DNA of 64,000 nucleotides from Luteimonas sp. (GTDB lineage: Bacteria > Pseudomonadota > Gammaproteobacteria > Xanthomonadales > Xanthomonadaceae), in contig JAYRKR010000001.1 of assembly GCA_041905645.1 (NCBI GenBank), positions 23,311-87,310 on the forward strand, read 5' to 3'. Position 1 is the stretch's first letter. Each line of letters begins with the position of its first letter. Shown here one piece after another: positions 23,135-39,750 of the stretch. Made by a program: the position numbers and the translations under genes. The notes below the pieces were generated by a model, which was given only the letters and a program-made list of their open reading frames with translations, was not told the DNA's origin and did no database searches.

Positions 23135-23148
23135 TTGATCTGAATCAA
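23135..23148 (-). promoter_or_regulatory. Consensus FNR box TTGATCTGAATCAA
   Basis: Perfect TTGAT-N4-ATCAA, with its centre 73 nt upstream of the USP ATG (23068). CGTAAT lies 22 nt downstream on the gene strand. Confidence 0.65.
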
Positions 23149-25688: not shown

Positions 25689-26219
25689 TCATGTCGATCG
25701 CGGATTCTTGTTGCCCGGATCGCGGCGGCGAGGGAATCCGAACCAGCGCGGGACGCGCCTCGCATAATCGGCGAACGCCGGACCGAACCGCGCGGACAGG
25801 TGCCGCTCCTCGCGCCGGATCGCCAGACGGTCGACCAGCACGACGGCCGCGGCCGTGGTCGCCAGCAGCCACGGCCATGCCAGCGCCAGCGCAAGGCCGA
25901 TCAGCAGCACCGTATTGCCCAGGTAGATCGGGTTGCGCGAGAAGGCGAACACGCCGCCGGTGACCAGGCGATCCGCGCCGCGGTGCGGCAGCACGTTGGT
26001 CCGCGCCCGGCGCATGGCGCGCATCGCGGCCAGGTCGAAGCCCAGGCCGAGGCACGCCATCGCGACGCCCAGGGCGCGCAGCCATGGGGCCGCGCCGGCG
26101 AACAGCGCGTCGGCAGCCAGGATCGTTTCAAGCCCCCATGCCGCCAGCACCGCCGCGAGATAGAGCAGCGGTGGCCAGGGAATGCGGTTGGGCCGCCGCA
26201 GGATGTCGTTTCCCGTCAT
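25689..26219 (-). CDS. Isoprenylcysteine carboxyl methyltransferase (ICMT/PEMT)-family membrane methyltransferase
   Basis: LVTGGVFAFSRNPIYLGNTVLLIG and EERHLSARFGPAFADY motifs. Confidence 0.75.
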   Translation of the reverse strand: MTGNDILRRPNRIPWPPLLYLAAVLAAWGLETILAADALFAGAAPWLRALGVAMACLGLGFDLAAMRAMRRARTNVLPHRGADRLVTGGVFAFSRNPIYLGNTVLLIGLALALAWPWLLATTAAAVVLVDRLAIRREERHLSARFGPAFADYARRVPRWFGFPRRRDPGNKNPRST

Positions 26220-26481
26220 GATCCTATCTTGACGCCGTTGCATTCAGGTCCCCAGCGTACCCGCCCACGGCCAGGTAAAAACTCCGCCGTCGCCCACGTG
26301 TCGGGGCTGCGCCGCATCGGGCGCAACCTGCACGGACCGCGCCTGCCCGCCATCGGAGTCCGGGAACGGATCGCCGCCGATGCCTCCAGGCGCGGAGTCC
26401 GGGGCCGCAGGGTCCGGATCGGCGCACCGACCTCGAACCCGAGGATGGTGGAGCCGACGTCGGCATCGGCGATGCCCGGGT

Positions 26482-27414
26482 TCATGCGAACACTCCCTGT
26501 TGCCGCGCGTGCGCGACCCGAACCGCCAGTCCGCAGGACAGCAGCCGGGTCAGCCGGCTGTCCGCACGGCTGGTGAGAATGATCGGGACGCGCGCGCCCA
26601 GCACCAGTCCGGCGGCCTCGGCCTTGCCGAAGAAAATCAGCTGCTTGGCGAGCATGTTGCCCGCTTCCAGGTTCGGCATCAGCAGCACGTCGGCATCGCC
26701 GGCGACTTCCGACACGATGCCCTTTTCATCGGCGGCCTTGCGTGAAATGGCGTTGTCGAACGCAAGCGGGCCGTCGATCAGCGCAGCTTCGATCTGCCCG
26801 CGCTGCGCCATCTTCGACAGGCAGGCGGCGTCGATCGTGGCCGGCATGTCCGGGTTCACCGTCTCAACGGCTGCCAGCACCGCGATCTTCGGGACGGCAT
26901 CGGCGCCGCGCAGGGCCTTGAACAAGTGGACCGCGTTGCGCGCGATGTCGGCCTTTTCCGCCAGCCCGGGCGCCAGGTTGATGACGCCGTCGGTGACCAT
27001 GAACGGCTTGTGGTACGCATGGTCGATGAAGGCGTAGACATGGCTCATCCGGCGCTCGGTGCGCAGCGGCCTGGCGGCGATCACGGCCCTGAGCAGTTCG
27101 TCCGTGTGCAGCGCGCCCTTCATCAGCGCCCGCACCCCGCCCTCCGCCGCCAGCGTGCAGGCAAGCACGGCGGCGGCATGGCTGTGCTCGACGTCGTGCA
27201 GCGGCCAGTCGCCGATGTCCACCCCGGCATCGGCGGCGGCGGCGCGGATGCGCGCTTCCGGACCGACCAGCACCGGTTCGATCAGGCCCTCGGCGGCCGC
27301 GTCGCGAGCGGCTTCGATGGCGCTCGCCTTGACCGGATGCACGATCGCGGTGCGCAGCGCCGGCATCGTGCTGCAGGCGTCGAGCAGTTCGCGGGAAGTG
27401 GGCAGGCGGGTCAT
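26482..27414 (-). CDS. Phosphate acetyl/butyryl-transferase family protein (PTA_PTB domain only)
   Basis: 310 aa. MKGALHTDELL, MVTDGVINLAP and ILTSRADS are motifs of Pta/Ptb. The start overlaps the upstream OMF stop (ATGA). Confidence 0.8.
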   Translation of the reverse strand: MTRLPTSRELLDACSTMPALRTAIVHPVKASAIEAARDAAAEGLIEPVLVGPEARIRAAAADAGVDIGDWPLHDVEHSHAAAVLACTLAAEGGVRALMKGALHTDELLRAVIAARPLRTERRMSHVYAFIDHAYHKPFMVTDGVINLAPGLAEKADIARNAVHLFKALRGADAVPKIAVLAAVETVNPDMPATIDAACLSKMAQRGQIEAALIDGPLAFDNAISRKAADEKGIVSEVAGDADVLLMPNLEAGNMLAKQLIFFGKAEAAGLVLGARVPIILTSRADSRLTRLLSCGLAVRVAHARQQGVFA

Positions 27415-28892
27415 GAGCCCGCTCCTTCGGAATCGCCGTCGGATGCCATCGCGCCGGTCGTTTGCCAGCCGCCACCCAGCGCCTTGAACAGCGCGACCAG
27501 GTCGATGGCGGTAGCGGTGTGGGTCCGGGCGTAGACATCCTCGGCATCGCGCAGGACCCGCTCCTCGGCCAGCAGGTCGACGAGCGCGATGTCGCCGGCT
27601 TCGAAACGGGCCCGCGCGTGACCGTAGCTGCGGCGCGCGGCTTCCACCGCCGCACGCCGGCCCTGCACCGCATCCAGGCCGAGCCGGTAGTCGCTCAGCG
27701 CGCGCTCCGCGTCGCCCAGGGCGGCCAGTACGGCGTGTTCGTACGCGAGGGCGGCTTGCTGTTGCCGCGCCTCGCTGGCGCGGATCTCCGCGCGTACGCG
27801 ACCGCCGTCGAACACGCGCCAAGAGATCAGCGGCACGATCGAAAAGGTCTGGCTGGCCGATTCGAACAAATTGCCGGCATCCAGCGACTGGAAACCGCCG
27901 CCGGCGCCGATCGACAGTTTCGGGAACAGCTCCGCCGTGGCCACGCCGATGTCGGCGGTGCGGGCGGCTAGGCGACGCTCGGCGGCACGCACGTCCGGCC
28001 GGCGACGCAGGATGTCGGCGCGTTCGCCCACGGGTATCGGCGCCAGCGCGATCTCCGGCGTGGTGGTGTCCAGCAGCGCCAGCTCGCGCTCCGGCGGCGC
28101 GCCGAGCAGTACGCCCAGTCCCAGCGCGGAGGCGCGCAGCCGCGCGCGGATCCCGGGCAGGCCGGCGGCGGCGGCGGCCAGTCGCGACTGCGCGGCGTCG
28201 ACATCGGCCTGCGCGGCGTCGCCCGCCTCCAGGCGCCTGCGCACCAGATCGAGCGTCTGCTGCAGGGTGTCGACCGAGGTTTCGCGCGCGGCCAGCTCAC
28301 GCTGCGCGCCCCGGAGCGTGAGATAGCTGCGCGCGACTTCGGCGGCAACGCTGATGCGCGCATCGAGCGCATCGGCCTGCGCGGCCTGTACGCTGGCCTC
28401 GGCGCTTTCAACCGCGCGCCGGGTCCTGCCGAACAGATCGATTTCCCAGGCGGCGTCGAAGCCGGCATCGTAGATCGTCTGGTCGCGTTCGAGCCCGGGA
28501 ATGGAACCGATCGGCAGCGGTCCGTTCTCGCTCTGCCGGCGCCGGGTTACGCTGGTCCCGGCATCGACCGACGGCGCGTAACCGCCGGCGGCCCGGTCGC
28601 GCAGCGCGCGCGCCTCGCGGATGCGCGCCTGCGCCTGCCGCAGGTCGAGATTGTCCGACAGCGCCTCGGCCACCAGCCGGTCCAGGACGGGGTCGCCCAG
28701 CGAAGTCCACCACGCCGACAATTCGACCTGTGCGTCCGCCGCGGCGGCCGATTGCGTCCAGCCGCTGCCCGTGTCGACCGGCGGCGGCTCGCGATAGTCG
28801 GGGCCGACGGCGCAGGCGCCCAGCAGCAACGCACACAGTGCGGCAGCCGGCGCACGCGCAGGGCGGCACCGCATGAACGATGTGGTTTCCAT
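27411..28892 (-). CDS. Efflux outer-membrane factor lipoprotein (NodT family)
   Basis: METTSF... with lipobox LLLGACAVGPDY, TolC-like repeats, and GAAGGAG 5 nt upstream of the ATG. Confidence 0.85.
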   Translation of the reverse strand: METTSFMRCRPARAPAAALCALLLGACAVGPDYREPPPVDTGSGWTQSAAAADAQVELSAWWTSLGDPVLDRLVAEALSDNLDLRQAQARIREARALRDRAAGGYAPSVDAGTSVTRRRQSENGPLPIGSIPGLERDQTIYDAGFDAAWEIDLFGRTRRAVESAEASVQAAQADALDARISVAAEVARSYLTLRGAQRELAARETSVDTLQQTLDLVRRRLEAGDAAQADVDAAQSRLAAAAAGLPGIRARLRASALGLGVLLGAPPERELALLDTTTPEIALAPIPVGERADILRRRPDVRAAERRLAARTADIGVATAELFPKLSIGAGGGFQSLDAGNLFESASQTFSIVPLISWRVFDGGRVRAEIRASEARQQQAALAYEHAVLAALGDAERALSDYRLGLDAVQGRRAAVEAARRSYGHARARFEAGDIALVDLLAEERVLRDAEDVYARTHTATAIDLVALFKALGGGWQTTGAMASDGDSEGAGS

Positions 28893-28932
28893 GACAACTC
28901 CTTCAGGAAGGGTCGTGTTCATTGGCGGCGGC

Positions 28933-30057
28933 TCATTGCAGGCGGCCGCGGACAAACACGGTGGCCATCGTCAGCGTCACCAGCGCGATCACCGCCAGCG
29001 GCCAGGTATTGGCGATGATGTCAGAAGCGGGCATCGCCTTGAGGAACGTGCCTTCGACGATGACCAGGAAGTGGGTGAGCGGAATCCCCTGCGCCATCCA
29101 CTGGAGCACCAGGGGCATGTTTTCCACCGGCGTGGCGAAACCCGACATCAGCACCGCCGGCACACCGATGGCGAAGGCGCCGAGGATCGCCTGCTGCTGG
29201 GTCGCGGAAACCGCGGAGATCATCAGCCCGATGCCCACCACCGACAGGATGAACAGCAGCAGGCTCGGCAGCAGCAGCCAGAACGAGCCGGTAAAGGGGA
29301 CGCCGAACAGGAACGCCGCCGCGGCGACCATCATCAATCCCAGCACTGCGCCGATGGCGACCGCCGGTACGGTCTTGGCGACGATGATTTCCAGGGTAGT
29401 GGTCGGCGAGACCAGCAGCTGGTCGAAGGTACCCAGCTCGCGTTCGCGGGCGATCGACAGCGCCGTGATCATCAGCGCGCTGAAGAAAACCAGGATTCCC
29501 GACAGGGCCGGCACCACGAACCAGCGGTAGATCAGGTTGGGATTGAACCAGTGGCGGACGACCACGGGCGCCGCGCGCTGCGGCTCCTTCCTGGCAGCGC
29601 TACCCACGTCTGCGGCGATGGCGTTGAGATACCCCACCGTGATCTGACCGGCATTGCTGCGCCGGCCGTCGACGATGACCTGCACCGTTCCCGTGCCTCC
29701 TGCGGCGATGTCGCGTGAAAAGTCCGGCCCCATGTCGAGCGCGGCAATGACCTTGCGCTCGTCGATCATTGCACGCAGCTCATCGCGGCTGTGCACCGTG
29801 CGCACTTCGCTGACGAAATCGGCCGCGCCCACGCGCGCCACCAGCTCGTGCGACCAGCGGCCGGCGTCGCGGTCGTAAACGGCGATATCGGCGTTGCGTA
29901 CTTCCAGGGTGGTGGCGAATGTGAAGATCAACAGCTGCATCAGCGGCGGCACGAACACGATGATGCGACTGCGGGGATCGCGCAGGATGCTGAGGAGTTC
30001 CTTGACGATCTGGGCGCGCAGGCGGCCATTGACGAGTGTGTTGAGCAGACGTCGCAT
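28933..30057 (-). CDS. ABC-2 type transporter permease (YbhR-like)
   Basis: 374 aa. LRAQIVKELLSILRDPRSRIIVFVPPLMQLLIF is a typical ABC-2 N-terminus. Confidence 0.85.
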   Translation of the reverse strand: MRRLLNTLVNGRLRAQIVKELLSILRDPRSRIIVFVPPLMQLLIFTFATTLEVRNADIAVYDRDAGRWSHELVARVGAADFVSEVRTVHSRDELRAMIDERKVIAALDMGPDFSRDIAAGGTGTVQVIVDGRRSNAGQITVGYLNAIAADVGSAARKEPQRAAPVVVRHWFNPNLIYRWFVVPALSGILVFFSALMITALSIARERELGTFDQLLVSPTTTLEIIVAKTVPAVAIGAVLGLMMVAAAAFLFGVPFTGSFWLLLPSLLLFILSVVGIGLMISAVSATQQQAILGAFAIGVPAVLMSGFATPVENMPLVLQWMAQGIPLTHFLVIVEGTFLKAMPASDIIANTWPLAVIALVTLTMATVFVRGRLQ

Positions 30058-30060
30058 CGC

Positions 30061-31251
30061 TCAAGGCTCCAGGTTCTTGCGTGTCTTGCTCTTCGCGATC
30101 ACGAAGAAGAGCACGCCGATCGCCATCATGGCCGCCAGATTCGGCAGGAACACCGCCCAGACGTCGCCGGCCAGGAACACCGTCTGCAAAGAGGACACGA
30201 AGTAGCGCGCCGGTATCACGTAGGTGATCGCCTGGATGGCGGCGGGCATGGCGTCGATCTCGAACAGGAAGCCCGAGAGCAGGAAGGACGGCAGGAAGCC
30301 GGAGAACAGCGCGATCTGCGAGGCGAGGAACTGGTTCCTGGTGACGGCCGAGATCAGCAGGCCCTGGCCGAGCGCGGGGACCAGGAAGACGGCCGACAGC
30401 GTCAGCAGCGCCAGCAGCGAACCGCGCAAGGGCACATCGAACACGAAGATCGCAAGCGCCGCGGACCCGAGCGTGGCGAGCATGCCAAGGATGAAATACG
30501 GCAGCAGTTTGCCGATCAGGATCTCCGCCACCGAAGCCGGGGTCGACAGGATGGCCTCCATCGTGCCCCGCTCCCACTCGCGCGCGACCACCAGCGCGGT
30601 AAGCATGGTGCCGATGATCGTCATCACGATGGCGATGGCGCCGGGCACCAGCGCGCGACGGCTTTCAAGTTCGGGGTTGAACCAGTAGCGTGGCTCCAGC
30701 CGGATGGCCGCCGCGGGCGCGCCGGAATGGCGGCCTGCCCCCCAGGTCTGCACGACCCCCTGGGCGTAATTGGCGACGAAGTTGGCGGTATTGGGCTGCG
30801 AACCGTCGGTGATCACCTGTACCAGTGGTTGCGGTATCCGGGACGCCAGCCGGCGCTCGAAGTCCTGCGGAATCACCACGAAACCGCGCAGCTTGCCGGA
30901 GACGACCTGATCGGCGACCTCGCGACGGTCGCGCGCGGGCGTGACTTTCAGGTAGCGGGTGCCGGCGAAGGCGGCGGCCAGCGACTGCGCCGATGCCGCA
31001 TCGGATTCCAGCACCACGCCGATCCGCACCTCGCGCACGTCCAGCGACACCGCATAGGCGAACAGGAACAGCAGCACCACCGGCAGCACGAAGGCGATCA
31101 GGATGGTGGACGGATCGCGCATCGCCTGCAGGCTTTCCTTGCGCACCAGCGCCATCAGGCGGCGCCAGTCGAATTTGCGGCTGGCCTGCTCGCGGTTGGC
31201 TTGCCCACCCTGCGCGCCGCCTGCGTGGACACTGGTAGTCTCGCCGCTCAT
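30061..31251 (-). CDS. ABC-2 type transporter permease (YbhS-like)
   Basis: 396 aa. LMALVRKESLQAMRDPSTILIAFVLPVVLL. The start overlaps the ATPase stop (ATGA). Confidence 0.85.
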   Translation of the reverse strand: MSGETTSVHAGGAQGGQANREQASRKFDWRRLMALVRKESLQAMRDPSTILIAFVLPVVLLFLFAYAVSLDVREVRIGVVLESDAASAQSLAAAFAGTRYLKVTPARDRREVADQVVSGKLRGFVVIPQDFERRLASRIPQPLVQVITDGSQPNTANFVANYAQGVVQTWGAGRHSGAPAAAIRLEPRYWFNPELESRRALVPGAIAIVMTIIGTMLTALVVAREWERGTMEAILSTPASVAEILIGKLLPYFILGMLATLGSAALAIFVFDVPLRGSLLALLTLSAVFLVPALGQGLLISAVTRNQFLASQIALFSGFLPSFLLSGFLFEIDAMPAAIQAITYVIPARYFVSSLQTVFLAGDVWAVFLPNLAAMMAIGVLFFVIAKSKTRKNLEP

Positions 31252-33038
31252 GCCGCCGCCTTGGCGTTTGCGCGCGCCTCGTCTTCGAGATCGGCCGACT
31301 CGACCAGATGGATGAAGGCGTCTTCCATCGTCGGATCGGGATGCTTGTCGCTGCGCGAATCGCGCTTGAGCGCGTCGGGCGTGTCGAGGGCGATCAGTTT
31401 CGCGCGATACATCATCGCCACCCGGTCGCAGTACTCGGCCTCGTCCATGAAATGGGTGGTGACCATCACCGTCACGCCCTTGCGGGCCAGGCCGTTGATG
31501 TGGGTCCAGAACTCGCGCCGGGTGATCGGATCGACGCCGGAGGTCGGCTCGTCGAGGAACAGCACCGGCGGGCGGTGCATCAGCGAACAAGCCAGCGCCA
31601 GGCGCTGCTTGTAGCCCAGCGGCAGCGAGTCCGGTGAGGCGGCGAGGTATTGCTTCAGGTCGAAGGTCTCGATCATCTCGTCGATGCGCTCGCGCTTGAC
31701 GGCGCCCTCCAGCCCGTAGACGCCGGCGGAGAATTCGAGGTTCTGCCGTACCGTCAGCAAGCCGTACAGGGAGAACTTTTGCGCCATGTAGCCAAGTCGG
31801 CTCTTGGCTGCTCCCGTGGCGTGGCGCAGGTCGTGCCCGACGACGTGGGCCTCGCCTTCGGTGGGCTTCAACAGCCCGCACAGCATCTTGAAGGTCGTCG
31901 ACTTGCCGGCGCCGTTGGGGCCAAGCAGGCCGAAGATCTCGCCCTTGCCGACTTCGAAGCTCACGCTGTCGGTCGCGGTGAAATCGCCGAAGCGTTTGGT
32001 CAGATTCTTGCAGGACACCGCGATGTCCGATTCGAGCTCGACCGGGCCGATGCGCGCGGCCAGCGCGGACGTGCCCCCGGGGCCGCCGCCCAGTAGATCG
32101 ATGAAGGCGTCCTCGAAGCGCGGCTGCACCGGCTCGAGTCTTGCGCCTACCTCGTCGGCCAGCGCATCGATCTCTTCGCATCCGGCATCGGCGCGCAGCA
32201 CCACGCGCACGGCGTCGCCCTGGATCACGCCGTCGCCGACGCTGCGCAGGTCCAGTACCCGGGACAACACGGCGCGGCGCTCGTTGCTGACGCCCGTCAG
32301 CCGGAAGCTGCGCTGCTTGATGCGATCGGTGAGCTCCTGCGGCGGGCCGTCGAACTCGAGCTTGCCTTCGTTGAGCAGCAGCACGCTCTCGCAGCGCTCG
32401 GCCTCGTCGAGGTAGGCCGTCGACCAGACCACGGCCATGCCGTCGTCAGTAAGCTCCTGCACCATGCGCCACAGATCCTGGCGGCTGACCGGATCGACGC
32501 CGACGCTGGGTTCGTCCAGCAGCAGCACTTCGGGCTTGGCCATCAGCGCGCACGCCAGGCCGAGCTTCTGCTTCATGCCGCCGGACAGCTTGCCGGCAAG
32601 GCGTTTGGTGAACGGACCGAGCCGGGTGAATTCAAGCAGGCTTCCGAAGGTATCGCCATGCCGATCCGCGTCCATGCCGCGCAGCTGCGCGTACAGGCGC
32701 ATGTTCTCCATCACCGACAGGTCCTCGTAGAGGCCGAAGCGCTGGGGCATGTAGCCGCTGACGATGTGGATGGCGTCGTTGTCGTCGACCACGTCGAAGC
32801 CGGCCAGCGCGACGCTGCCGCCATCGGGCACCAGCAGGCCGGTCATGATCCGCATCAAAGTGGTCTTGCCGGCACCGTCCGGGCCTACCAGGCCGGTGAG
32901 GCGGCCGTAGCGGACCTCGGCGCTGAGGCCGCGCAGGGCCTGGACCTCGCCGAAGCGCTTGACGAGGTTGTCGATGACGACCGCGGGGGCGTCCCTGCCG
33001 CGCGCGCGCGATGGATCGTTGGAGGTGTGCGCATTCAT
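31248..33038 (-). CDS. Duplicated-domain ABC transporter ATP-binding protein (YbhF-like)
   Basis: Two Walker A sites (GPDGAGKTT, GPNGAGKST) and two LSGGMKQ/YKQRL signature regions. 596 aa. Confidence 0.9.
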   Translation of the reverse strand: MNAHTSNDPSRARGRDAPAVVIDNLVKRFGEVQALRGLSAEVRYGRLTGLVGPDGAGKTTLMRIMTGLLVPDGGSVALAGFDVVDDNDAIHIVSGYMPQRFGLYEDLSVMENMRLYAQLRGMDADRHGDTFGSLLEFTRLGPFTKRLAGKLSGGMKQKLGLACALMAKPEVLLLDEPSVGVDPVSRQDLWRMVQELTDDGMAVVWSTAYLDEAERCESVLLLNEGKLEFDGPPQELTDRIKQRSFRLTGVSNERRAVLSRVLDLRSVGDGVIQGDAVRVVLRADAGCEEIDALADEVGARLEPVQPRFEDAFIDLLGGGPGGTSALAARIGPVELESDIAVSCKNLTKRFGDFTATDSVSFEVGKGEIFGLLGPNGAGKSTTFKMLCGLLKPTEGEAHVVGHDLRHATGAAKSRLGYMAQKFSLYGLLTVRQNLEFSAGVYGLEGAVKRERIDEMIETFDLKQYLAASPDSLPLGYKQRLALACSLMHRPPVLFLDEPTSGVDPITRREFWTHINGLARKGVTVMVTTHFMDEAEYCDRVAMMYRAKLIALDTPDALKRDSRSDKHPDPTMEDAFIHLVESADLEDEARANAKAAA

Positions 33039-34072
33039 CTCAGCGGCCTTGCGCGCTTGTCGACGGTCGGGGCAACATCGACATCGACCGTCACCGGCAT
33101 GCCCTGGCGCAGGCCCTGATCGGCATCGGCAACCACCACGCGCAGCCGGTAGACCAGATCGGTGCGCAAGTCGGTGGTCTCCACCGTTTTCGGGGTGAAC
33201 TCCGCGCGCGGCGAGATGAAGCCGATCTGGCCGCGATAGACCTTGTCGGAGGAGTCGGTGTGCACGCGCACCTTCGCGCCCGGCGCGATGCGGCCCAGGT
33301 CCGGTTCGCTGACATACGCGCGCACATACACCGGATCGCGCAGGCTCAGGCTGTACACGGTGGTGCTGCTCGCCACCATGGAGCCCGGTTCGCGAATCCG
33401 CGCGATCACGGTGGCATTGCCGGGCGCCACGAGCCTGGTGTCGGCCAGCGCGGTGCGCGCCTGCGCCAGCGCGGCGGCCGCCGCGGCCACCCGCGCCTGG
33501 CCGGCGGCGATGTCTTCGCTTCGAAAGCCATCCCGGGCCAGCGACAGGGCCGACCTTGCCGAGGCCAAGCTGGCCGCCGCCTGGTCGCGCGCGGCACGCG
33601 CGGCGTCGACGGTGCGCTGGCTGCTGGCGCCCGATTCGAGCAGTACATTCTGGCGCCTGAAATTGCGCTCGGCTTCGTCAAAGCCCGCCTGCGCCCGGCG
33701 CACGGTCTCCTGCGCCTGCGCGATTTCCTGCGGACGATTGCCGCTGCGCAGCTTGTCCAGTCCGGCCTGCGCCGCTTGCAGCTCGGCCTGGGCCGCGGCC
33801 AGCTTCTCGCGATAAGGCCCGGCGTCGAGTCGCGCCATGACATCGCCGGCGGCGACGGTGTCGCCCTCGTCGAAGGCCATGCTCGCCACGCGGCCGGGCT
33901 GGCGGAATGACAGTTCGACCTCGCGGATGTCAACGTTGCCGTACAGGCGCAGAACGCCATCATCGCCGCCGTCGCGCAGCAGCCACCACAGCAGCAGGCC
34001 GGCGATGGCCGCTGCGGCGACGGCAATCAGTATCCAGCGGGTCTTCCCGTTGGGGAGGCTTGGAATCTTCAT
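33035..34072 (-). CDS. HlyD-family membrane fusion protein (YbhG-like)
   Basis: N-terminal TM helix, a coiled-coil AQAELQAAQA region, and a lipoyl-like fold. 345 aa. The stop overlaps the ATPase start. Confidence 0.85.
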   Translation of the reverse strand: MKIPSLPNGKTRWILIAVAAAAIAGLLLWWLLRDGGDDGVLRLYGNVDIREVELSFRQPGRVASMAFDEGDTVAAGDVMARLDAGPYREKLAAAQAELQAAQAGLDKLRSGNRPQEIAQAQETVRRAQAGFDEAERNFRRQNVLLESGASSQRTVDAARAARDQAAASLASARSALSLARDGFRSEDIAAGQARVAAAAAALAQARTALADTRLVAPGNATVIARIREPGSMVASSTTVYSLSLRDPVYVRAYVSEPDLGRIAPGAKVRVHTDSSDKVYRGQIGFISPRAEFTPKTVETTDLRTDLVYRLRVVVADADQGLRQGMPVTVDVDVAPTVDKRARPLR

Positions 34073-34201: not shown

Positions 34202-34666
34202 TCATGGTTGTCCATCGAAATGTTCCTGGAAAGGTTTACGGAATTGCTGATGGCAGGCCAGGCAGGTTCCCTGCAGAGTCGCAAATTTCGAGATCACCGC
34301 CTTGCCATCGCTGCGAACGGCAGCCTCACCCAACGCACTCGCTGCCAAGTGAGTCTGCTTGTCGTACTGCTTGAAGCTGCCCGCATTGCTGCCGACGAAT
34401 GCCAAGATGCGCATCCGTTCGCCCATCGGCGGCTGCGGATGATTGGCGATCCGCGGCGCGGTCTTGGCGACCAGCACCCAGTCTTCACGGGCAATGCCGT
34501 CGGTGATGGCCTGCATGTCCTTGCCGAGGTCCTGCATGATCTTGCGCAACGCCAGCGGCTTGGCCTTGTCCGCGTCCGCGGCTCGGGCCAGCGGATAGGC
34601 CCCTGCCAGCAGCGCGCCGGCGACCGCGGTCGCCAAACATGCCTTGAACAGTTGATGACGTTGCAT
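34202..34666 (-). CDS. Class II cytochrome c (cytochrome c'/c-556 type)
   Basis: 154 aa with a signal peptide, a four-helix-bundle-like sequence, and a single heme site CLACH near the C-terminus. Confidence 0.75.
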   Translation of the reverse strand: MQRHQLFKACLATAVAGALLAGAYPLARAADADKAKPLALRKIMQDLGKDMQAITDGIAREDWVLVAKTAPRIANHPQPPMGERMRILAFVGSNAGSFKQYDKQTHLAASALGEAAVRSDGKAVISKFATLQGTCLACHQQFRKPFQEHFDGQP

Positions 34667-34737: not shown

Positions 34738-35946
34738 CTAGAATTCGATGCTCACGGCGATGGAGCCGTAAGCCTGGTTGTCGTCCTGCTCCTCGAACTC
34801 GCGCGTGCGGTAGACGTGCATCACGGCCAGTCTCACGCCATGCTTCGCCACGATGGCCTGGGCGCTGAACCCGATCGCCGCCTGCGCGACCCAGGGCCGG
34901 CGGGTCACGCCGGGGCCTGAACGGAACAGGTTGCCGTCGAGCGAAAAGTCGTAACCGACGGCCTTGGCTTCCACGATCGCGAACAGGTGCGCGCCGGGAC
35001 GCGGCCGACCGGCGGACGCCACCGAAGCGCCGCGGTCGGCATGCAGCGAGGTCGCCGACGGCGGACGGTTCTCGGCGCCCGGCCGGAGCGGATAGCTGCC
35101 GAAATCGTTGGGCAGGTTCCAACCGACGCGGCCCTCGATGCCCGCGGTGGCGGACGTCTCGATGTTGCCGAGCCGCAGCCCCAGCATGCGAATCGAATCG
35201 GCGGAAAACCCCGGAACGACCGCCCCGGAGCCGCGGAAAGGGCGGAACTTGCGGTCCACGGCCAGCTGGAAGGCCGGCTCGTTCTTCAACTGATTGTCCC
35301 AGCCCAGGAACCGGTCTTCGCCGATCGCATCGTGGATCAGGTTCTGGGACTGCTCGGCCAGCGACCAGGGGCCGATCACGCCCAGGGTGATCTCGCGCGT
35401 ATCGAGCATTTCACGATTCGATCCAGGTTGGTGCCGGCGCCGGTTCCACGCCAGGCCCGTGTACAGCAATCCCGCATAGGGCCGGTCATCGGCGATCAGG
35501 TCGGTCCGGCTGTAGTCTTCGGGCGTGTAAATGGACTGGCCGAAGCGGACCACCACGTTCTGCGTGCCCGGAACATCGTCGGCATCGCTCCAGAATCCCG
35601 GATTGACCAGTTCGATGAGTCGCGCATGCAGCCGGATCGGCGCGGGCAGGCATACGGGCCGCAGTTCGCCGGACATGTCGTGCGACACCAGGGTCAACGC
35701 CACGCCGTTGGTGTAGTTTTGGTCGGTACCGGTGAACAGATCGTTTTCCAGCCGTGCGGTGCCGCCACGCAATCGGGGCGTCTGTTCCCGCGTGCAGTCT
35801 CCCGCGCCGACCGCGTCGCCGGCCGCTTGCGCCTGCGCGGGCGAGAGCAGCAGAGCGCCTATCGCCAGCGCCAACGCAGGTCGCCCCGCCAGGCCAGGCC
35901 GGGCAGACGGGTTCGCCGCGAACGGACCGGGCGCGCGCATGCTCAT
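34738..35946 (-). CDS. Lipid A deacylase LpxR-family outer-membrane protein (DUF2219)
   Basis: Signal peptide. LENDLFTGTDQNYTNGVALTL and DDRPYAGLLY motifs. The start overlaps the LOG stop (ATGA). Confidence 0.75.
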   Translation of the reverse strand: MSMRAPGPFAANPSARPGLAGRPALALAIGALLLSPAQAQAAGDAVGAGDCTREQTPRLRGGTARLENDLFTGTDQNYTNGVALTLVSHDMSGELRPVCLPAPIRLHARLIELVNPGFWSDADDVPGTQNVVVRFGQSIYTPEDYSRTDLIADDRPYAGLLYTGLAWNRRRHQPGSNREMLDTREITLGVIGPWSLAEQSQNLIHDAIGEDRFLGWDNQLKNEPAFQLAVDRKFRPFRGSGAVVPGFSADSIRMLGLRLGNIETSATAGIEGRVGWNLPNDFGSYPLRPGAENRPPSATSLHADRGASVASAGRPRPGAHLFAIVEAKAVGYDFSLDGNLFRSGPGVTRRPWVAQAAIGFSAQAIVAKHGVRLAVMHVYRTREFEEQDDNQAYGSIAVSIEF

Positions 35947-36818
35947 ACGGACACGGCTCCTGCAACGTCCGGCGGCCTGCCGTCATAGAATTCTTCCAGC
36001 ACCGCCACGATGTCTTCGGCGAGGTCCACGCACGTGACCAGCTGCACGTCTTGCGGCGCGATGAAGCCTTCTTCCACGAGATAGTCGAAGTCCACGGCGC
36101 GGCGCCAGAACTCGCTGCCGACCAACACGACGGGGATGCGCGCCATCTTGCCGGTCTGCACCAGGGTCAACACCTCGAACAGCTCGTCGAGCGTGCCGAA
36201 GCCGCCGGGGAAGGCGACCAGCGCCCGCGCGCGCAGCAGGAAATGCATCTTCCGAAGGGCGAAATAGCGGAAGCGGAACGCAAGTTCGGGACTGATGAAA
36301 GGATTGGGCGCCTGCTCGTGCGGCAGCGTGATGTTGAGCCCGATCGAGCGCGCGCCGGCTTCGTACGCACCGAGGTTGGCCGCTTCCATGATGCCGGGAC
36401 CGCCGCCGGTTACGACAACGAAGTCGCGCCGCCCTTCGCGCTGGAAGCGGGACGAAATTATGTGCGAGAAGCGGCGCGCCTGTTCGTAGTCTCGCGCATG
36501 CGCGAGCCGGCGTTTGGCCAGTGCGAGCTCCGCGACAGCTCCCGGACCGCGCGGCGTCTCCATGGCACGGCAGCGGGCCTGTGTCAGCTGCGTCTGCGCC
36601 TGCTCCGGCGACGGGGTACGCGCGCTGCCGAACACCACCACTGTGGAGCGGATGCCGTGCGCGCGCAATTCATGTTCGGCCTTGAGCATCTCCAGCTGCA
36701 GGCGCAGCGGACGCAGGTCCTCGCCGGAGAGAAACTCGACATCCTCGCTCGCAAGTCGATACGCCGGCCCGCGCATGATGGCTTGCTGCAGTTCCTGTCG
36801 GCGCCCGTTATCGATCAT
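35943..36818 (-). CDS. LOG / TIGR00730-family Rossmann-fold nucleotide-binding protein
   Basis: VVTGGGPGIMEAAN and AFPGGFGTLDELFE (PGGxGTxxE) motifs. 291 aa. The start overlaps the beta-CASP stop (ATGA). Confidence 0.85.
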   Translation of the reverse strand: MIDNGRRQELQQAIMRGPAYRLASEDVEFLSGEDLRPLRLQLEMLKAEHELRAHGIRSTVVVFGSARTPSPEQAQTQLTQARCRAMETPRGPGAVAELALAKRRLAHARDYEQARRFSHIISSRFQREGRRDFVVVTGGGPGIMEAANLGAYEAGARSIGLNITLPHEQAPNPFISPELAFRFRYFALRKMHFLLRARALVAFPGGFGTLDELFEVLTLVQTGKMARIPVVLVGSEFWRRAVDFDYLVEEGFIAPQDVQLVTCVDLAEDIVAVLEEFYDGRPPDVAGAVSV

Positions 36819-38248
36819 GCCGAGGCGCTCCTGCCGGCGCCGTTCCATCGCACGCGCTGGCCCGGCTCCGGCACGGCCACCCGCCAGCCGCGATCGACGC
36901 GCAGCCGCTCGGCGAACGCCAGCGCCGATCCGGCCTCGCCGTGCACCACGAAGGTCTGCTGCGGCGGACGTTTGAAGCCCGCCGTCCAGGCGAGCAAGGC
37001 GGGCAGGTCGGCGTGCGCGGACAGCCCGCCCGAAGCGTGGATCGCGGCGCGCACGGGAATGTCGTCGCCGAAGATACGCACGCGCTTGGCGCCGTCGAGA
37101 AGCCTGCGACCCAAGGTGCCCTGGGCCTGGAAACCGGTCATCAGCACGCTGCACTCGCGCCGTCCCAGGTTGTGCCGCAAGTGATGTTTGATGCGGCCGG
37201 CATCACACATACCGCTGGCCGAGATGATGAAGGCACCCGAGCGCACCCGGTTGAGCTGCATCGACTCCTCCACGCTCTCCACGAACCGCAGGTAGGGGAT
37301 GTCGCGGCCGACAGCGTGCCAGTCCTTCAGCCGACGCGCCGCCTGGTCGAATAGTTCCAGGTGCTGCATGGTGATCTGCGACGCCCTGCTGGCCATCGGA
37401 GAGTCGACGAAGATCTTCAGGCCGCGCAGCCGGCCTTCGCAGGTCAGGCGGTGGAGGTGATAGATGACTTCTTGGGTGCGGCCCACGGCGAACGCCGGTG
37501 CGATCACGTTGCCGCCCTGCTCGTGCAGGGTACGCTCGACCACCTGGATGAGGTCGGCCTGCGTCGCAGCCAGATCCTTGTGGGTGCGGTCGCCGTAGGT
37601 CGACTCGATCACCAGGATGTCGGCATCCTCGATGAGCGTTGGATCGCGCAGGATCGGCCTGCCGGGCTGGCCCAGATCACCGCTGAACACGAGCTTGGTC
37701 GTCCGCCCGGCCTCGGCTACCCAGACTTCGAGCAAGGCCGATCCGAGGATGTGCCCGGCATCGCGGAAACGGCAGCGCACGTCCGAGTGCGGCCGGAGCT
37801 CCTGGTCATAGGCAGCGGCCTGTACCTGCCGCAGACAGTCCTTCGCGTCCTGCACGGTGTACAGCGGCGTCCCGGTCGCCGACTTGTCGCGCGCCTTTTT
37901 TTTTCTGACCCGGCGCTGCGCACGCGCGGCGTTGGTTTCCTGGATATGGCCGCTGTCGGGCAGCATCACCTGCAGCAGGTCCGCGGTCGCGGCGGTGGCG
38001 TGGATCGGGCCCCGGAATCCCGCGTTCGTCAGCTTCGGCAGCAGACCGCTGTGATCAATGTGGGCGTGCGTCAGAAGCACGAAATCGATCGTTCGTGGAT
38101 CGAACGCGAATGGTGCGCGATTGCGTGCCGGAGCTTCCCGCCCGCCCTGGATCATGCCGCAGTCCACCAGGAAGCGGACAGCATCGGTCTCGACCAGAAA
38201 GCATGAACCGGTGACTTCGCGCGCTGCACCGAGGAAGCTGATGTTCAT
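36815..38248 (-). CDS. MBL-fold beta-CASP hydrolase, copy 2
   Basis: MNISFLGAAREVTGSCFLVE...LVDCGMIQGG...LLTHAHIDHSGLLPKL...SAHAD...VVHGE. 477 aa. The start overlaps the upstream membrane-protein stop (ATGA). Confidence 0.85.
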   Translation of the reverse strand: MNISFLGAAREVTGSCFLVETDAVRFLVDCGMIQGGREAPARNRAPFAFDPRTIDFVLLTHAHIDHSGLLPKLTNAGFRGPIHATAATADLLQVMLPDSGHIQETNAARAQRRVRKKKARDKSATGTPLYTVQDAKDCLRQVQAAAYDQELRPHSDVRCRFRDAGHILGSALLEVWVAEAGRTTKLVFSGDLGQPGRPILRDPTLIEDADILVIESTYGDRTHKDLAATQADLIQVVERTLHEQGGNVIAPAFAVGRTQEVIYHLHRLTCEGRLRGLKIFVDSPMASRASQITMQHLELFDQAARRLKDWHAVGRDIPYLRFVESVEESMQLNRVRSGAFIISASGMCDAGRIKHHLRHNLGRRECSVLMTGFQAQGTLGRRLLDGAKRVRIFGDDIPVRAAIHASGGLSAHADLPALLAWTAGFKRPPQQTFVVHGEAGSALAFAERLRVDRGWRVAVPEPGQRVRWNGAGRSASA

Positions 38249-38691
38249 CGACGCCGCCTCGCATCGGAATCCATTGTTCGCGCGTTGCATACATGCCGCT
38301 CCCGGAGCCGCCAGGCACCGATGGCCGCGATCGCAATCCACACCGCACTGCGCAGGGTCATGGCGATGAGCGTGCGTTGTTCGTAGGCGCCACCAGTGCC
38401 TACATGCACGGCAAAAGCCGTGAATGCAGCCAGCGTCCCCGCGGCGATGGCGACGGCCATCCACACGGCCCAGCGCTGCTGCAACCAGAGCCCGGCGCCT
38501 GCAAGGACGTAAGCGAAACCGGCGAGAAAATTGAACCAGAGCACGAACGGAACATAGTTTCCGGCCGCGGCACGCGCCGCCCCGTCATGAAACAGGACTG
38601 CGCCGCCTTCCTTGATGGTCAGTACGCCAAAACCCACGGCGACCAGGGAAATCGCCCATACCCAGAAATCACGATGCGTGCGAGTTTTCAT
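38245..38691 (-). CDS. Hypothetical integral membrane protein (about 4 TM)
   Basis: 148 aa with hydrophobic segments. AAGGA SD. Lies 23 nt downstream of the EncFtn-like gene. No family recognised. Confidence 0.6.
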   Translation of the reverse strand: MKTRTHRDFWVWAISLVAVGFGVLTIKEGGAVLFHDGAARAAAGNYVPFVLWFNFLAGFAYVLAGAGLWLQQRWAVWMAVAIAAGTLAAFTAFAVHVGTGGAYEQRTLIAMTLRSAVWIAIAAIGAWRLRERHVCNARTMDSDARRRR

Positions 38692-38714: not shown

Positions 38715-39002
38715 TCAGTCATGCGAGATCGGTTTGTCTGTGAACAGGTAATCCTTCAGCTGCCGCGAAAACGTCGGATCCCGGCGCCGGATCCATTCGA
38801 GCAGCATGGCGGCGTGCTCCTTCTCCTCGTCGCGGTTATGCGCGAGGATGGCCTTCAGCGATTCGTCGGCGCAGGCGTCGCGTCGCTGGTTGTACCAGTC
38901 GACCGCCTCCAGCTCTTCCATCAGCGAGACGATCGCGCGATGCATGTCGCGGGTCTCGGTCGAAAGGTCGTCGACGGGCTCGTGGTAGCCAATACTGGAC
39001 AT
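38715..39002 (-). CDS. Encapsulated-ferritin-like (EncFtn family) protein lacking a C-terminal targeting peptide
   Basis: HEPVDDLSTETRDMHRAIVSLMEELEAVDWYNQRRDACADESLKAILAHNRDEEKEHAAMLLEWIRRRD...YLFT closely mirrors the Rhodospirillum rubrum EncFtn core as I recall it. The protein ends right after the core. Confidence 0.75.
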   Translation of the reverse strand: MSSIGYHEPVDDLSTETRDMHRAIVSLMEELEAVDWYNQRRDACADESLKAILAHNRDEEKEHAAMLLEWIRRRDPTFSRQLKDYLFTDKPISHD

Positions 39003-39091: not shown

Positions 39092-39706
39092 TCAGGCGTC
39101 ACGGCGCGCTTCGATGCCGCGGCGATAAATGTCGAAGACCCGTGCTGCATCGCTGTGCATGCGCTTGACGTCGCCGGCCAGCAGCGACTGCATGACCAGT
39201 CCCTGGATCGTGCCGATGAAAAGAATCACGGCGGCGTCTCTATCGAGCTCGGCGGACAGTTCGCCGCGCGCCTTGCCCGCCTCCATCAGCCGAAGCAGGC
39301 GCTGGCCGTAGCGCTCGATCAAGGTCTGGGCCATGCGTTTGGCGGCGGTTGGTTCGGCCCGCTGCAGCTCGCCGAACATCATCCGCGGCACGCCTGGGTG
39401 TTCGGCCACGAACTCGACGTGGGTCATGAACATCGCCCGCAGTGCCGCCAGCGGCGAGTCGACGCCCTCGGCGGCACGATCGACCCGGGCCAGCAGGCGC
39501 TCGGCCACCCACTCCATGACCGCCTGCCAGATCGCGTCCTTGCTCGGAAAATGGCGGAACAGCGCGCCCTGCGTCAGATGCATGTGCTCGGCGATGGCTG
39601 CCGTGGTGATGTCGTTCGGATTCCGGGTGGCGGCCAGCTCGACCACCGCCTCCACGGTCACCGCGCGTCGCTGCTCGGCCGGCAGGTTCTTGGGACGAAC
39701 AGTCAT
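39092..39706 (-). CDS. TetR/AcrR-family transcriptional regulator
   Basis: The N-terminal HTH ITTAAIAEHMHLTQGALFRHFPSKDAIW is typical of TetR. 204 aa. Confidence 0.9.
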   Translation of the reverse strand: MTVRPKNLPAEQRRAVTVEAVVELAATRNPNDITTAAIAEHMHLTQGALFRHFPSKDAIWQAVMEWVAERLLARVDRAAEGVDSPLAALRAMFMTHVEFVAEHPGVPRMMFGELQRAEPTAAKRMAQTLIERYGQRLLRLMEAGKARGELSAELDRDAAVILFIGTIQGLVMQSLLAGDVKRMHSDAARVFDIYRRGIEARRDA

Positions 39707-39720
39707 GACTACCCCTAATG

Positions 39721-39738
39721 ATAGTAATTGATTACTAT
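39721..39738. promoter_or_regulatory. AT-rich inverted repeat ATAGTAAT-TG-ATTACTAT (candidate TetR operator)
   Basis: 8-bp perfect arms with a 2-bp spacer, 15 nt upstream of the TetR ATG, in a strongly AT-rich patch of a GC-rich genome. Confidence 0.5.
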
Positions 39739-39750
39739 CTTGAAGAGCTG

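Follow-up and report, generated by a model that had tools for sequence, protein, structure and literature searches.

What joins a four-helix membrane protein, a beta-CASP metallo-hydrolase, a LOG-family protein and an LpxR-like outer-membrane protein, whose genes follow one another stop-to-start on one strand of a Luteimonas sp. genome? The initial annotation of this 64,000-nt stretch of DNA (the window) described a 4-nt ATGA overlap at each of the three junctions and proposed an obligately co-translated unit, acting either as an envelope plus RNA/nucleotide remodelling module or as a nucleotide-dependent conflict system. The overlaps themselves are confirmed. Read on the minus strand, the 148-aa gene ends in ...CGA TGA where the beta-CASP gene starts with ATG AAC (38248-38245), the beta-CASP gene ends in GCA TGA where the LOG gene starts with ATG ATC (36818-36815), and the LOG gene ends in GTA TGA where the LpxR gene starts with ATG AGC (35946-35943). 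Likewise, exactly 23 nt separate the stop codon of the preceding EncFtn gene (38717-38715) from the following ATG (38691), and independent calls on six public contigs with an identical beta-CASP protein give identical gene boundaries. We consider, with a probability of about 0.55, that the four genes form the central part of a single-strand operon under TetR control, composed of separable parts, which keep their linkage while their order shuffles.

The single-strand array contains 12-13 genes and extends on the minus strand from 39739 to 26482, the focal four genes occupying its middle. Behind a putative operator comes the first gene, encoding a TetR-family repressor (39092..39700; Pfam TetR_N 2.6e-09, plus TetR_C_24 and TetR_C_13), and then an accessory gene for an EncFtn-like ferritin-like protein (38715..39002; PF22277 1.5e-43; TIGR04535 134 bits against a cutoff of 125), which no encapsulin shell gene adjoins. 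The focal genes encode TM148, a 148-aa four-helix inner-membrane protein (38245..38691) which, as previously proposed, is uncharacterised and matches no Pfam or NCBIfam family; a TTHA0252-type beta-CASP metallo-hydrolase, predicted to act as a 5'-3' exo/endo-ribonuclease (36815..38248; Beta-Casp 1.6e-33, RMMBL 2.1e-15 and Lactamase_B domains); a predicted LOG-family phosphoribohydrolase of type II, with a long N-terminus (35943..36818; Lysine_decarbox, PF03641, 4.4e-30; TIGR00730 above cutoff); and an LpxR-family outer-membrane beta-barrel, predicted to be a lipid A 3'-O-deacylase or related lipid esterase (34738..35946; PF09982 3.7e-85 over the whole profile). The earlier domain assignments were therefore correct, and computation establishes these gene identities. 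Downstream lie genes for a periplasmic class II cytochrome c' (34202..34666; PF01322 2.3e-06, 29 bits against a cutoff of 26.5; C-terminal CxxCH, CLACH), a YbhG-type periplasmic adaptor (33035..34072; NF002939 461 bits against 393), a YbhF-type double ABC ATPase (31248..33038), the ABC-2 permeases YbhS (30061..31251) and YbhR (28933..30057), and a NodT/TolC-type outer-membrane channel (27411..28955; PF02321 1.1e-49; TIGR01845 336 bits against 210). A phosphate acetyl/butyryl-transferase gene, pta (26482..27414; NF008852 413.5 bits against 413; NF006045 429 against 282), is possibly the last member; its inclusion is uncertain since it was not seen after the channel gene in other loci, while the channel gene follows ybhR also in L007-L010, L088, L096, L097 and L099 of the related loci.

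From 39700 to 27411 every gene lies on the same strand, with intergenic gaps of at most 129 nt and six 4-nt overlaps, and terminator-like sites in the array are not enriched (9 against 6.9 expected from shuffled sequence). The genes are thus probably transcribed as a single transcript, although internal promoters could lie in the gaps of 71, 89 and 129 nt. Further ATGA overlaps join YbhG to YbhF (33035-33038), YbhF to YbhS (31248-31251), the channel to Pta (27411-27414) and, outside the array, OsmC to Trx2 (25193-25196), and a scan of the 64-kb window returned 13 candidate NTGA stop/start junctions. Because such overlaps are frequent in the window, three in a row reflect operon packing in a 68% G+C genome and nothing rarer. 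They are not obligatory either, since the TM148/beta-CASP junction is a gap of 19-39 nt in three relatives (L087, L177 and L178), and the beta-CASP/LOG junction holds a gap or an inserted 55-aa ORF in three (L008, L012 and L087). In other relatives the exporter separates the focal genes, being placed between beta-CASP and LOG in L007 and between TM148 and beta-CASP in L008, L088 and L096-L099, and LpxR is replaced or absent. An obligately co-translated four-gene unit is therefore not sustained: the unit is longer, led by TetR, and includes cytochrome c' and the YbhGFSR-type exporter.

The commonness of these overlaps would also suit a loose assembly, in which functionally unrelated stress genes are merely carried along by a mobile low-oxygen or efflux island and the overlaps express only the compactness of high-G+C operons. 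The gene-neighbourhood comparison bears directly on this. Rather than being scattered, the same parts recur in at least 21 related loci, one of them on a plasmid, whose hosts are gamma-, beta- and alphaproteobacteria; the counts given here are samples among the matches listed, and several of the loci are closely related to one another. The exact order of the window occurs in one of these loci and is shuffled in the others; the series TetR-TM148-beta-CASP-LOG-LpxR-cytochrome c' is conserved in L178 and nearly so in L179. Among the 22 arrays listed, 18 contain beta-CASP together with LOG, as neighbours in 16; 18 contain TM148, 17 an ABC exporter, 14 cytochrome c' and 12 a lipid hydrolase. EncFtn is missing from most arrays, although it immediately precedes TM148 also in L007 and L176 (79-84% identity). 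Some arrays carry a MacAB-type pump instead of YbhFSR, and LpxR gives way in some to a patatin or to PldA, or is missing. Two sub-modules recur: an RNase–LOG pair, adjacent and usually overlapping, and an envelope set consisting of TetR, the four-helix protein, the ABC exporter, cytochrome c' and a lipid acyl-hydrolase.

Shuffled order favours the loose assembly, as do proteins 70-87% identical across bacterial classes and an array on a plasmid, from which common descent by transfer could explain the co-occurrence. However, the linkage outlasts repeated rearrangement, and three unrelated folds (LpxR, patatin and PldA) fill the equivalent lipid-hydrolase position. Other anchors give a similar picture: among the matches listed, all five metagenome loci with a LOG of at least 62% identity also contain beta-CASP and TM148, four of seven TM148-anchored loci contain TM148-beta-CASP-LOG, and 10 of 75 more distant LOG loci (46-56%) have an adjacent distant beta-CASP gene (38-46%), on unrelated contigs and in either order, even though distant relatives of LOG and of beta-CASP mostly lie apart from each other. 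Since the operator, where found, also marks the first array gene whichever gene leads, we regard the loose assembly as unlikely.

That putative TetR operator is a 20-bp AT-rich palindrome, GATAGTAATCAATTACTATC, located at 39720..39739, which occurs once in the window and whose end lies some 20 nt before the TetR start codon. Of the 22 arrays listed, 14 (the window and 13 relatives) have a 20-bp palindrome ahead of their first gene, against a background of 8 matches in 654 kb of unrelated loci; its conservation is a computed result. The related palindromes lie 30-45 nt upstream of the first array gene: before TetR in L007, L008, L010, L087, L088/L089, L093, L099, L176 and L178, upstream of a truncated TetR call in L179, and before a non-TetR first gene in L092 (channel) and L094 (adaptor). 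The repressors are 57-81% identical among related arrays. This conserved TetR-type palindrome appears to be the control element of the array.

In the cytoplasmic RNase–LOG pair both enzymes look active, as judged from invariant catalytic motifs and from the described activities of their relatives. The best solved relative of the beta-CASP protein is the T. thermophilus RNase TTHA0252 (2.7e-82; PDB 2DKF/3IEK), a protein with 5'-3' exo-RNase activity that affects global mRNA levels. The two proteins are similar over their full length, with the same domain set and metal-binding motifs, and HAHIDH, H166, D191, E215, H412 and H436 are conserved without exception in 15 relatives. The window protein differs in a basic insert of about 25 residues (105-127), absent from TTHA0252, where the DNA contains a run of nine A; unlike stand-alone TTHA0252, it belongs to a TetR/efflux operon and has LOG as its partner, its activity being predicted only. 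For LOG, the best solved relative is 5WQ3 (E 7.6e-43), and the motifs GGGPGIME and PGG(F/Y)GTxDE are invariant in 9 relatives. Seo and Kim described the structure of Cg1261, a type-II LOG phosphoribohydrolase of C. glutamicum with an extended N-terminus; this enzyme, T. thermophilus TT1465 and the related PpnN share with the window LOG the extended N-terminus and the PGGxGTxxE and GGGxGxM motifs, the window protein being longer (291 aa against 264 aa). Its identification as PpnN, the E. coli nucleotide nucleosidase, was rejected (NF038390 26 bits against a cutoff of 450). The two proteins are probably produced in fixed proportion because their genes usually overlap, and their adjacency and family chemistry suggest a flow from RNA to nucleotide to base. 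We found no description of a conserved LOG and beta-CASP RNase pairing in the literature searched. On a Ralstonia plasmid, a beta-CASP paralog has as neighbours genes for a thymidine-phosphorylase-family protein and a PRPP synthetase, a context pointing in the same direction, nucleotide salvage.

These identities also bear on the conflict-system reading of the initial annotation, in which LOG/SLOG would be a sensor or processor and beta-CASP the effector nuclease of an anti-phage system. SLOG-family proteins and metallo-beta-lactamase nucleases are indeed known from defence systems, the best, sub-threshold NCBIfam match of the beta-CASP protein is the type VII CRISPR Cas14 (379 bits against a cutoff of 800), and faint Apyc1 matches appear in relatives. 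But LOG, its catalytic motifs intact, is a canonical type-II enzyme, PADLOC matched none of the eight proteins scanned, and the high conservation across classes (proteins 60-87% identical) argues against it, as does a neighbourhood holding no CRISPR, toxin or other defence genes, in which efflux and stress genes are the constant neighbours. This reading is abandoned as very improbable.

We give as little credence to a plain drug-efflux or resistance operon with the metallo-hydrolase as a beta-lactamase, despite a review labelling its lxa counterpart BCAM0300 a beta-lactamase and despite the likeness of TetR and pump to E. coli cecR-ybhGFSR. There the exporter gene order is the same, identities to YbhG, YbhF (582 residues), YbhS and YbhR are 52, 58, 48 and 41%, respectively, a TetR-family gene leads the array, and the pump has as neighbours a small four-helix membrane gene (ybhQ), a lipid enzyme gene (clsB) and a nuclease-fold gene (ybhP). 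The window, in contrast, has six extra genes between regulator and pump and its own outer-membrane channel gene; its TetR gave no tblastn match to CecR at E<1, and TM148 shows no similarity to YbhQ. Moreover, the beta-CASP protein has Beta-Casp and RMMBL RNA-specificity domains, no signal peptide and a match of 2.7e-82 to an RNase, whereas beta-lactamase models reach only 1e-05 to 1e-07, far under their cutoffs, and LOG, cytochrome c' and the lipid hydrolases would be left unexplained.

A more specific alternative is a signal circuit, in which the RNase would free modified nucleotides (e.g. tRNA-derived isopentenyl-AMP) and LOG would convert them to a cytokinin-like base that serves as TetR ligand or exporter cargo and triggers envelope remodelling. 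This would parallel, in proteobacteria, the cytokinin signalling of M. tuberculosis. LOG enzymes, the type-II form included, are cytokinin-activating phosphoribohydrolases, and in M. tuberculosis cytokinin induces an operon via the TetR-like Rv0078 and alters the envelope (PMC6016246). The LOG gene here keeps company with genes for a TetR, an exporter and lipid hydrolases of the envelope, just as the mycobacterial pathway (LOG Rv1205, TetR-like Rv0078, Rv0077c) unites a LOG, a TetR-type repressor and envelope change; the mycobacterial genes are not clustered as in the window, and the resemblance would be one of logic only. The array, however, holds no isopentenyl transferase gene for cytokinin synthesis, and L092, L093 and L094 possess TetR, TM148 and the exporter without RNase or LOG, so that a LOG product cannot be what the repressor requires in every array. 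Such a circuit appears doubtful, more so than the loose assembly.

Among the envelope proteins, TM148 has 4122 relatives at E<=0.001, the best 120 of which are 63-79% identical; its invariant residues include G29, G30, N54, H96, R106 and R114, and K27 and E28 are nearly invariant. The structure prediction suggested earlier gave a helical AlphaFold model, although of low, unreliable confidence (pLDDT 62). The window LpxR shares a full-length Pfam LpxR match with the Salmonella lipid A 3'-O-deacylase (PDB 3FID), yet it is about 100 residues longer and matches 3FID weakly (2.5e-07 over ~105 residues). The catalytic H122 of Salmonella aligns with the histidine of QNLIHDAIG, Q118 and N119 also align, and the N-terminus (...LLLSPAQAQA), read by eye, resembles a signal peptide. 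Since patatin or PldA takes the LpxR position in sister arrays, the conserved function may be general lipid deacylation rather than lipid A 3'-O-deacylation.

The surroundings are an island of nitrate-respiration and low-oxygen type, its low-oxygen character having been proposed in the initial annotation: the window also holds NarG, NarK, the Moco genes MoaA and MoeA, universal stress protein genes, OsmC, Trx2, a P-type ATPase and a second beta-CASP gene, and FNR-like boxes are enriched (19 against 6.9 expected). The low-oxygen-activated lxa locus of Burkholderia cenocepacia, whose genes are induced at low oxygen, contains genes of similar types: BCAM0300 encodes a metal-dependent RNase/MBL, BCAM0283, which adjoins the cytochrome c gene BCAM0284, encodes a 'lysine decarboxylase', probably a LOG, and further genes are for an ABC exporter, outer-membrane components, Pta, a cation ATPase and universal stress proteins. 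The window shares with it the universal stress protein genes, Pta, the P-type ATPase and FNR-like boxes. In the one lxa-type region compared, from B. stagnalis, the beta-CASP protein shows 55% identity to the second beta-CASP of the window and only 37% to the focal protein; its gene lies ~10 kb from that of LOG, which is 48% identical. Unlike lxa, the focal operon bears a putative TetR operator and not an Anr/FNR box: no convincing FNR/Anr box was found in it, so that its link to low oxygen is one of neighbourhood only. The partners fit the envelope plus RNA/nucleotide module first proposed, the conserved putative control element being the TetR-type palindrome.

Our search found no literature on the function, expression or biochemistry of this array operon or its close relatives, and we infer the ligand, the substrates and the physiological trigger. 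A promoter overlapped by the conserved 20-bp palindromic operator would drive the operon, and binding of a ligand would release the TetR repressor and switch it on. On derepression the cell would trim and recycle RNA, the beta-CASP RNase yielding 5'-mononucleotides that LOG may split into free base and ribose-5-phosphate. At the same time, the lipid acyl-hydrolase (LpxR, patatin or PldA) would alter outer-membrane lipid acylation, the tripartite ABC exporter (YbhGFSR plus channel, or MacAB type) would export a product or toxin, and NO and iron would be buffered in periplasm and cytoplasm. Arrays of this type are widespread in proteobacteria, and they are best read as a stress-adaptation operon, a programme for growth arrest or nitrosative/low-oxygen stress rather than for phage defence.

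The initial annotation had proposed four genes, encoding a membrane protein, a beta-CASP hydrolase, a LOG-family protein and an LpxR-like outer-membrane protein, as an obligately co-translated unit. The three ATGA junctions that chain them are exact on the minus strand (38248-38245 between the genes of the 148-aa protein and the beta-CASP protein, 36818-36815 between beta-CASP and LOG, and 35946-35943 between LOG and LpxR), and the distance of 23 nt from the EncFtn stop to the following ATG was borne out when the sequence was read on that strand. The same gene boundaries appeared in the gene calls of six public contigs carrying an identical beta-CASP protein, and the domain assignments were likewise right: EncFtn-like (1.5e-43), Beta-Casp with RMMBL and Lactamase_B, Lysine_decarbox/TIGR00730 for the LOG protein, and full-length LpxR (3.7e-85). 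The true unit exceeds four genes. It is a same-strand run in which no gap exceeds 129 nt, composed on the minus strand of genes for a TetR repressor (39700-39092), an EncFtn-like protein (39002-38715), the 148-aa membrane protein, hereafter TM148 (38691-38245), the beta-CASP protein (38248-36815), LOG (36818-35943), LpxR (35946-34738), cytochrome c' (34666-34202), a YbhG-type adaptor (34072-33035), a YbhF-type double ATPase (33038-31248), two ABC-2 permeases of YbhS type (31251-30061) and YbhR type (30057-28933), a NodT/TolC-type channel (28955-27411) and, as a possible last member, a phosphate acetyltransferase, Pta (27414-26482), whose gene shares an ATGA overlap with that of the channel. 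A scan of the window gave 13 candidate NTGA overlaps, including YbhG/YbhF, YbhF/YbhS, channel/Pta and OsmC/Trx2; since such overlaps are common at 68% G+C, three in a row are not exceptional, and they show operon packing and nothing rarer. Neither terminators nor structured RNA exceeded chance in the 71-, 89- and 129-nt spacers, where folding was no better than that of shuffled sequence, the frequency of terminator-like sites also not rising above it. Beyond the run, a 184-aa membrane protein (25689-26243, minus strand) resembles by eye an isoprenylcysteine/phospholipid methyltransferase, and on a Ralstonia plasmid (L091) the gene immediately upstream of a beta-CASP paralog is annotated as a member of that family.

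The window contains one copy of a near-perfect, AT-rich palindrome of 20 bp, GATAGTAATCAATTACTATC (39720-39739), which precedes the TetR ATG by about 20 nt. Related palindromes were found 30-45 nt upstream of TetR in other loci carrying the array (L007, L008, L010, L087, L088/L089, L093, L099, L176 and L178), and in L179 one precedes a truncated TetR call, while in L092 and L094, where TetR is internal, the palindrome precedes the first gene of the array, that of the channel and of the adaptor, respectively. The background amounted to 8 matches in 654 kb of unrelated loci. We infer that the palindrome is a putative TetR operator, and its position points to control of the same-strand array as one unit; such a conserved putative operator offers an easy experimental handle on the operon. 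FNR/Anr control of the operon was considered and rejected, given that the one box-like match near the start of the operon (39728) is part of this palindrome. A response regulator and histidine kinase pair is encoded divergently from the TetR gene.

Linkage was sampled with three independent anchors, namely beta-CASP, LOG (in a metagenome scan) and TM148, the locus counts being samples among the matches listed, with some loci close kin and the nearest relatives reached via exact-protein look-ups. All three anchors recovered the linked array, so that the neighbourhood is conserved, and the four-gene order itself recurs in two loci, L178 and L179. The beta-CASP family is large (at least 8000 proteins at E<=1e-20), with identities of 71-87% across Xanthomonadales, Rhodanobacter, Thiobacillus, Rhodocyclaceae, Alcaligenaceae and Ottowia, and among 80 genome loci taken from the matches listed, most of those with at least 60% identity showed an adjacent LOG gene plus exporter, TetR and cytochrome c'. 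Neighbours of distant beta-CASP proteins (42-50%, mostly Firmicutes) were uninformative, being a lineage-specific mix of GH15, aminotransferases, SpoIVA, RNase H and Cu-oxidase_4. Among the metagenome matches listed, LOG proteins of at least 62% identity were accompanied by beta-CASP and TM148 in 5/5 loci, and those of 46-56% identity by an adjacent distant beta-CASP (38-46%), in either order, in 10/75. TM148 led to TM148-betaCASP-LOG in four of seven loci: followed by a patatin gene in L176 and L177, with LpxR further on in the latter, and in the order of the window (TetR-TM148-betaCASP-LOG-LpxR-cyt c') in L178 and, after a MacAB pump, in L179. An apparent insertion of an opposite-strand 335-aa ORF in the L179 beta-CASP gene was dismissed as a frameshift or assembly error, tblastn giving two in-frame pieces. 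The other three loci lack RNase and LOG yet carry TetR, TM148 and an ABC exporter, alone in L093, with cytochrome c' and LpxR in L092, and with cytochrome c' and PldA in L094, which adjoins NsrR-type, hemerythrin, NnrS and cd1 nitrite reductase genes.

Gene order is shuffled among these arrays. L087 reads TetR-MacAB-TM148-betaCASP-(55 aa)-LOG-cyt c', the Rhodanobacter loci L088/L089 read TetR-TM148-YbhGFSR-channel-(160 aa)-betaCASP-LOG-cyt c', and an alphaproteobacterial Hoeflea plasmid has 4-nt overlaps within the array TetR-betaCASP-LOG-HlyD-RbbA-permease-haem protein and also encodes a divergent TM148 homolog. The exporter lies between beta-CASP and LOG in L007 and between TM148 and beta-CASP in L008, L088 and L096-L099, so the four genes do not form an obligate co-translated block, contrary to the proposal. 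In a sample of 22 arrays, window included, 18 had beta-CASP together with LOG, side by side in 16; TM148 occurred in 18, the ABC exporter in 17, cytochrome c' in 14 and a lipid acyl-hydrolase in 12. Against this recurrence, mere co-travel of unrelated genes on an island seems a rather unlikely account. A defence system, the conflict-system reading of the initial annotation, is highly improbable, as none of the eight proteins scanned gave a PADLOC match at E<=0.001.

By sequence, the focal hydrolase belongs to the beta-CASP ribonuclease group (CPSF-73 / RNase J / TTHA0252), and it is predicted to cleave RNA. Its metallo-beta-lactamase motifs (HAHIDH at 61-66, H166 and D191, with a Lactamase_B match) and its beta-CASP and RMMBL residues (E215, H412 and H436; PF10996 1.6e-33, PF07521 2.1e-15) are invariant in 15 relatives, and the closest solved relative is T. 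thermophilus TTHA0252 (2.7e-82), a stand-alone beta-CASP RNase described as a 5'-3' exonuclease that affects mRNA globally. These RNase domains leave very little room for a beta-lactamase/efflux operon. A similar question arises for BCAM0300 of the low-oxygen-activated lxa locus of Burkholderia cenocepacia, which a 2025 review (PMC12071387) presents as a beta-lactamase contributing to beta-lactam resistance and the original paper (PMC3721108) as a metal-dependent RNase; because the Burkholderia homolog examined is a beta-CASP protein, the claimed role in resistance seems to stem from misannotation. Within the focal gene, a run of nine A (minus strand, 37896-37904), unusual for a 68% G+C gene and a possible slippage site, corresponds to RVRKKKARDK, part of a variable basic insert absent from TTHA0252.

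The adjacent LOG protein carries FPGGFGTLDE and TGGGPGIME, of the PGGxGTxxE and GGGxGxM types and invariant in 9 relatives, preceded by about 130 residues N-terminal to the LOG domain. It is most similar to hexameric type-II LOGs, its top PDB matches being 5WQ3 (7.6e-43), 5ZI9 and 1WEK, and Cg1261 has been described as a type-II LOG with an extended N-terminus, in the source that also defines type II. Judged by sequence, the window protein is a type-II LOG family member with intact catalytic motifs. A literature search for a beta-CASP/LOG pairing found none. From family chemistry and adjacency, the pair would convert RNA to 5'-NMPs and these to bases and ribose-5-phosphate, for salvage or RNA down-sizing in growth arrest. 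The beta-CASP paralog on the Ralstonia plasmid adjoins thymidine-phosphorylase-family and PRPP synthetase genes, a neighbourhood consistent with nucleotide salvage.

The envelope part of the operon includes an exporter and a lipid hydrolase. The LpxR match (PF09982) spans positions 6-323 of 323, and the catalytic H122 of Salmonella LpxR (3FID), its role taken from the literature, aligns with the His in QNLIHDAIG, overall similarity to Salmonella LpxR being weak. The protein is thus a predicted member of the lipid A 3'-O-deacylase family, expected to remove the 3'-acyloxyacyl group. The equivalent position is filled by LpxR, patatin or PldA, three unrelated lipid esterases, which argues for lipid deacylation as its conserved function. 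Very large GH94 plus 'Glycoamylase' genes (beta-1,2-glucan synthase/phosphorylase type) adjoin the array in four loci (L087 18371-21407; L093 1697-5596 and 10793-19453; L177 16217-17278; L178 14698-20426), a further envelope or periplasm theme. The exporter proteins share 52, 58, 48 and 41% identity with YbhG, F, S and R of E. coli, with gene order kept, and the adaptor scores above the NF002939 (YbhG-type) cutoff. The TetR protein gave no tblastn match at E<1 against the E. coli cecR region and so shows no similarity to CecR. In E. coli K-12 (818000-834000), cecR-ybhGFSR is flanked by ybhQ, ybhP, clsB, rhlE and ybiA, which encode a small membrane protein, a protein of nuclease/phosphatase fold, cardiolipin synthase, an RNA helicase and an N-glycosidase. 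This mix of pump, membrane protein, nuclease, lipid enzyme and glycosidase is a loose parallel to the window and may be coincidence. In L092 (3827-4690) and L177 (3319-4182) an HD-domain phosphohydrolase gene separates the adaptor and ATPase genes, and YbhF is split into two single ATPases.

TM148, for which the lack of a family had been correctly noted, appears to represent a new membrane-protein family of thousands of members, with no description found in the literature searched. Pfam and NCBIfam searches returned no family, 40 members giving only sub-threshold DUF7144 and DUF2127, and YbhQ was discarded as a counterpart for lack of similarity; no informative relative emerged. The four-helix family is highly conserved, N54, H96, R106 and R114 being invariant polar residues and K27 and E28 nearly so; the AlphaFold model (pLDDT 62) was too poor for use. 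The L177 array also contains a further cytochrome c' gene, behind which lies a second TM148 paralog (14750-15241; 56% identity), an arrangement suggestive of a TM148-cytochrome c' pairing. Cytochrome c', which binds NO, and EncFtn would buffer NO and iron, as expected from their families. EncFtn-like proteins above the NCBIfam cutoff for encapsulin-associated ferritin are encoded in the window (38715-39002), L007 (9272-9556) and L176 (9691-9978); in all three the downstream neighbour is TM148, and no encapsulin shell gene lies beside them. The window protein ends in …FTDKPISHD, with no obvious targeting peptide.

The suggestion of a low-oxygen island was borne out for the surroundings and applies to the operon itself by context. 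Other products encoded in the window are NarG, a NarK-type transporter, MoaA, MoeA, several universal stress proteins, OsmC, thioredoxin 2, a P-type ATPase and an RND pump, and FNR/Anr-like boxes (TTGAT-N4-ATCAA) are enriched, with 19 found versus 6.9 expected at up to 2 mismatches over the whole window. Boxes with at most one mismatch (12284, 13032, 17986, 21417, 21462 and 23135) cluster at 12-23 kb, adjoining universal stress protein, iron-permease and acetyltransferase genes; those at 13032, 21417, 21462 and 23135, the first and last perfect, lie beside universal stress protein genes and a second beta-CASP gene. This paralog (23315-24706, plus strand) shares about 44% identity with relatives of the focal protein, and the perfect box TTGATCTGAATCAA (23135-23148) lies between it and a divergent universal stress protein gene (22229-23068). 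The same arrangement recurs in Rhodanobacter, where a one-mismatch box (L088 18038) precedes the second paralog by about 90 nt. The kinds of genes in the window match those of the B. cenocepacia lxa locus, where a metal-dependent RNase, a 'lysine decarboxylase', a cytochrome c, an ABC exporter with outer-membrane protein, Pta, universal stress proteins and a cation ATPase are all induced by low oxygen. We compared the lxa-type region on a B. stagnalis replicon, whose beta-CASP is 55% identical to the second paralog, its putative ortholog, and 37% to the focal protein, with LOG at 48%. Since no convincing FNR box was found for the focal operon, and the B. stagnalis lxa-type beta-CASP is nearer the second paralog, the low-oxygen link is contextual.

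Taken together, the operon would best be read as a TetR-gated stress programme in which the RNase-LOG pair may recycle RNA, the envelope set would alter outer-membrane lipid acylation and export a product, and cytochrome c' with EncFtn would buffer NO and iron. A cytokinin-like signal circuit, drawn by analogy with M. tuberculosis LOG, Rv0078 and Rv0077c, is unlikely. It is a long shot that the pair generates a signal, RNA or tRNA breakdown yielding a free, possibly modified purine base for TetR release or ABC export and so coupling RNA turnover in growth arrest to outer-membrane lipid deacylation; if true, proteobacteria would have a 'cytokinin-like' circuit that is self-contained and horizontally mobile, the 4-TM protein serving as its membrane component.

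Each of the component families is known, and operons of the pump's kind are known too; what appears new is the conserved combination under a putative TetR operator, the RNase-LOG pairing and the TM148 family, none of which we found described in the literature searched. We know of no established physiological role for bacterial LOG or proteobacterial non-RNase-J beta-CASP proteins, both abundant, and their conserved, usually overlapped pair provides a concrete pathway to test. A poorly understood ABC exporter (YbhFSR/MacAB type) is linked in the array to outer-membrane lipid hydrolases of three folds, an NO-binding cytochrome and an undescribed membrane-protein family. Most of the array's hosts are denitrifiers, sulfur oxidizers or wastewater bacteria, and the operon may thus bear on survival of anoxia and NO stress and on efflux-linked tolerance.
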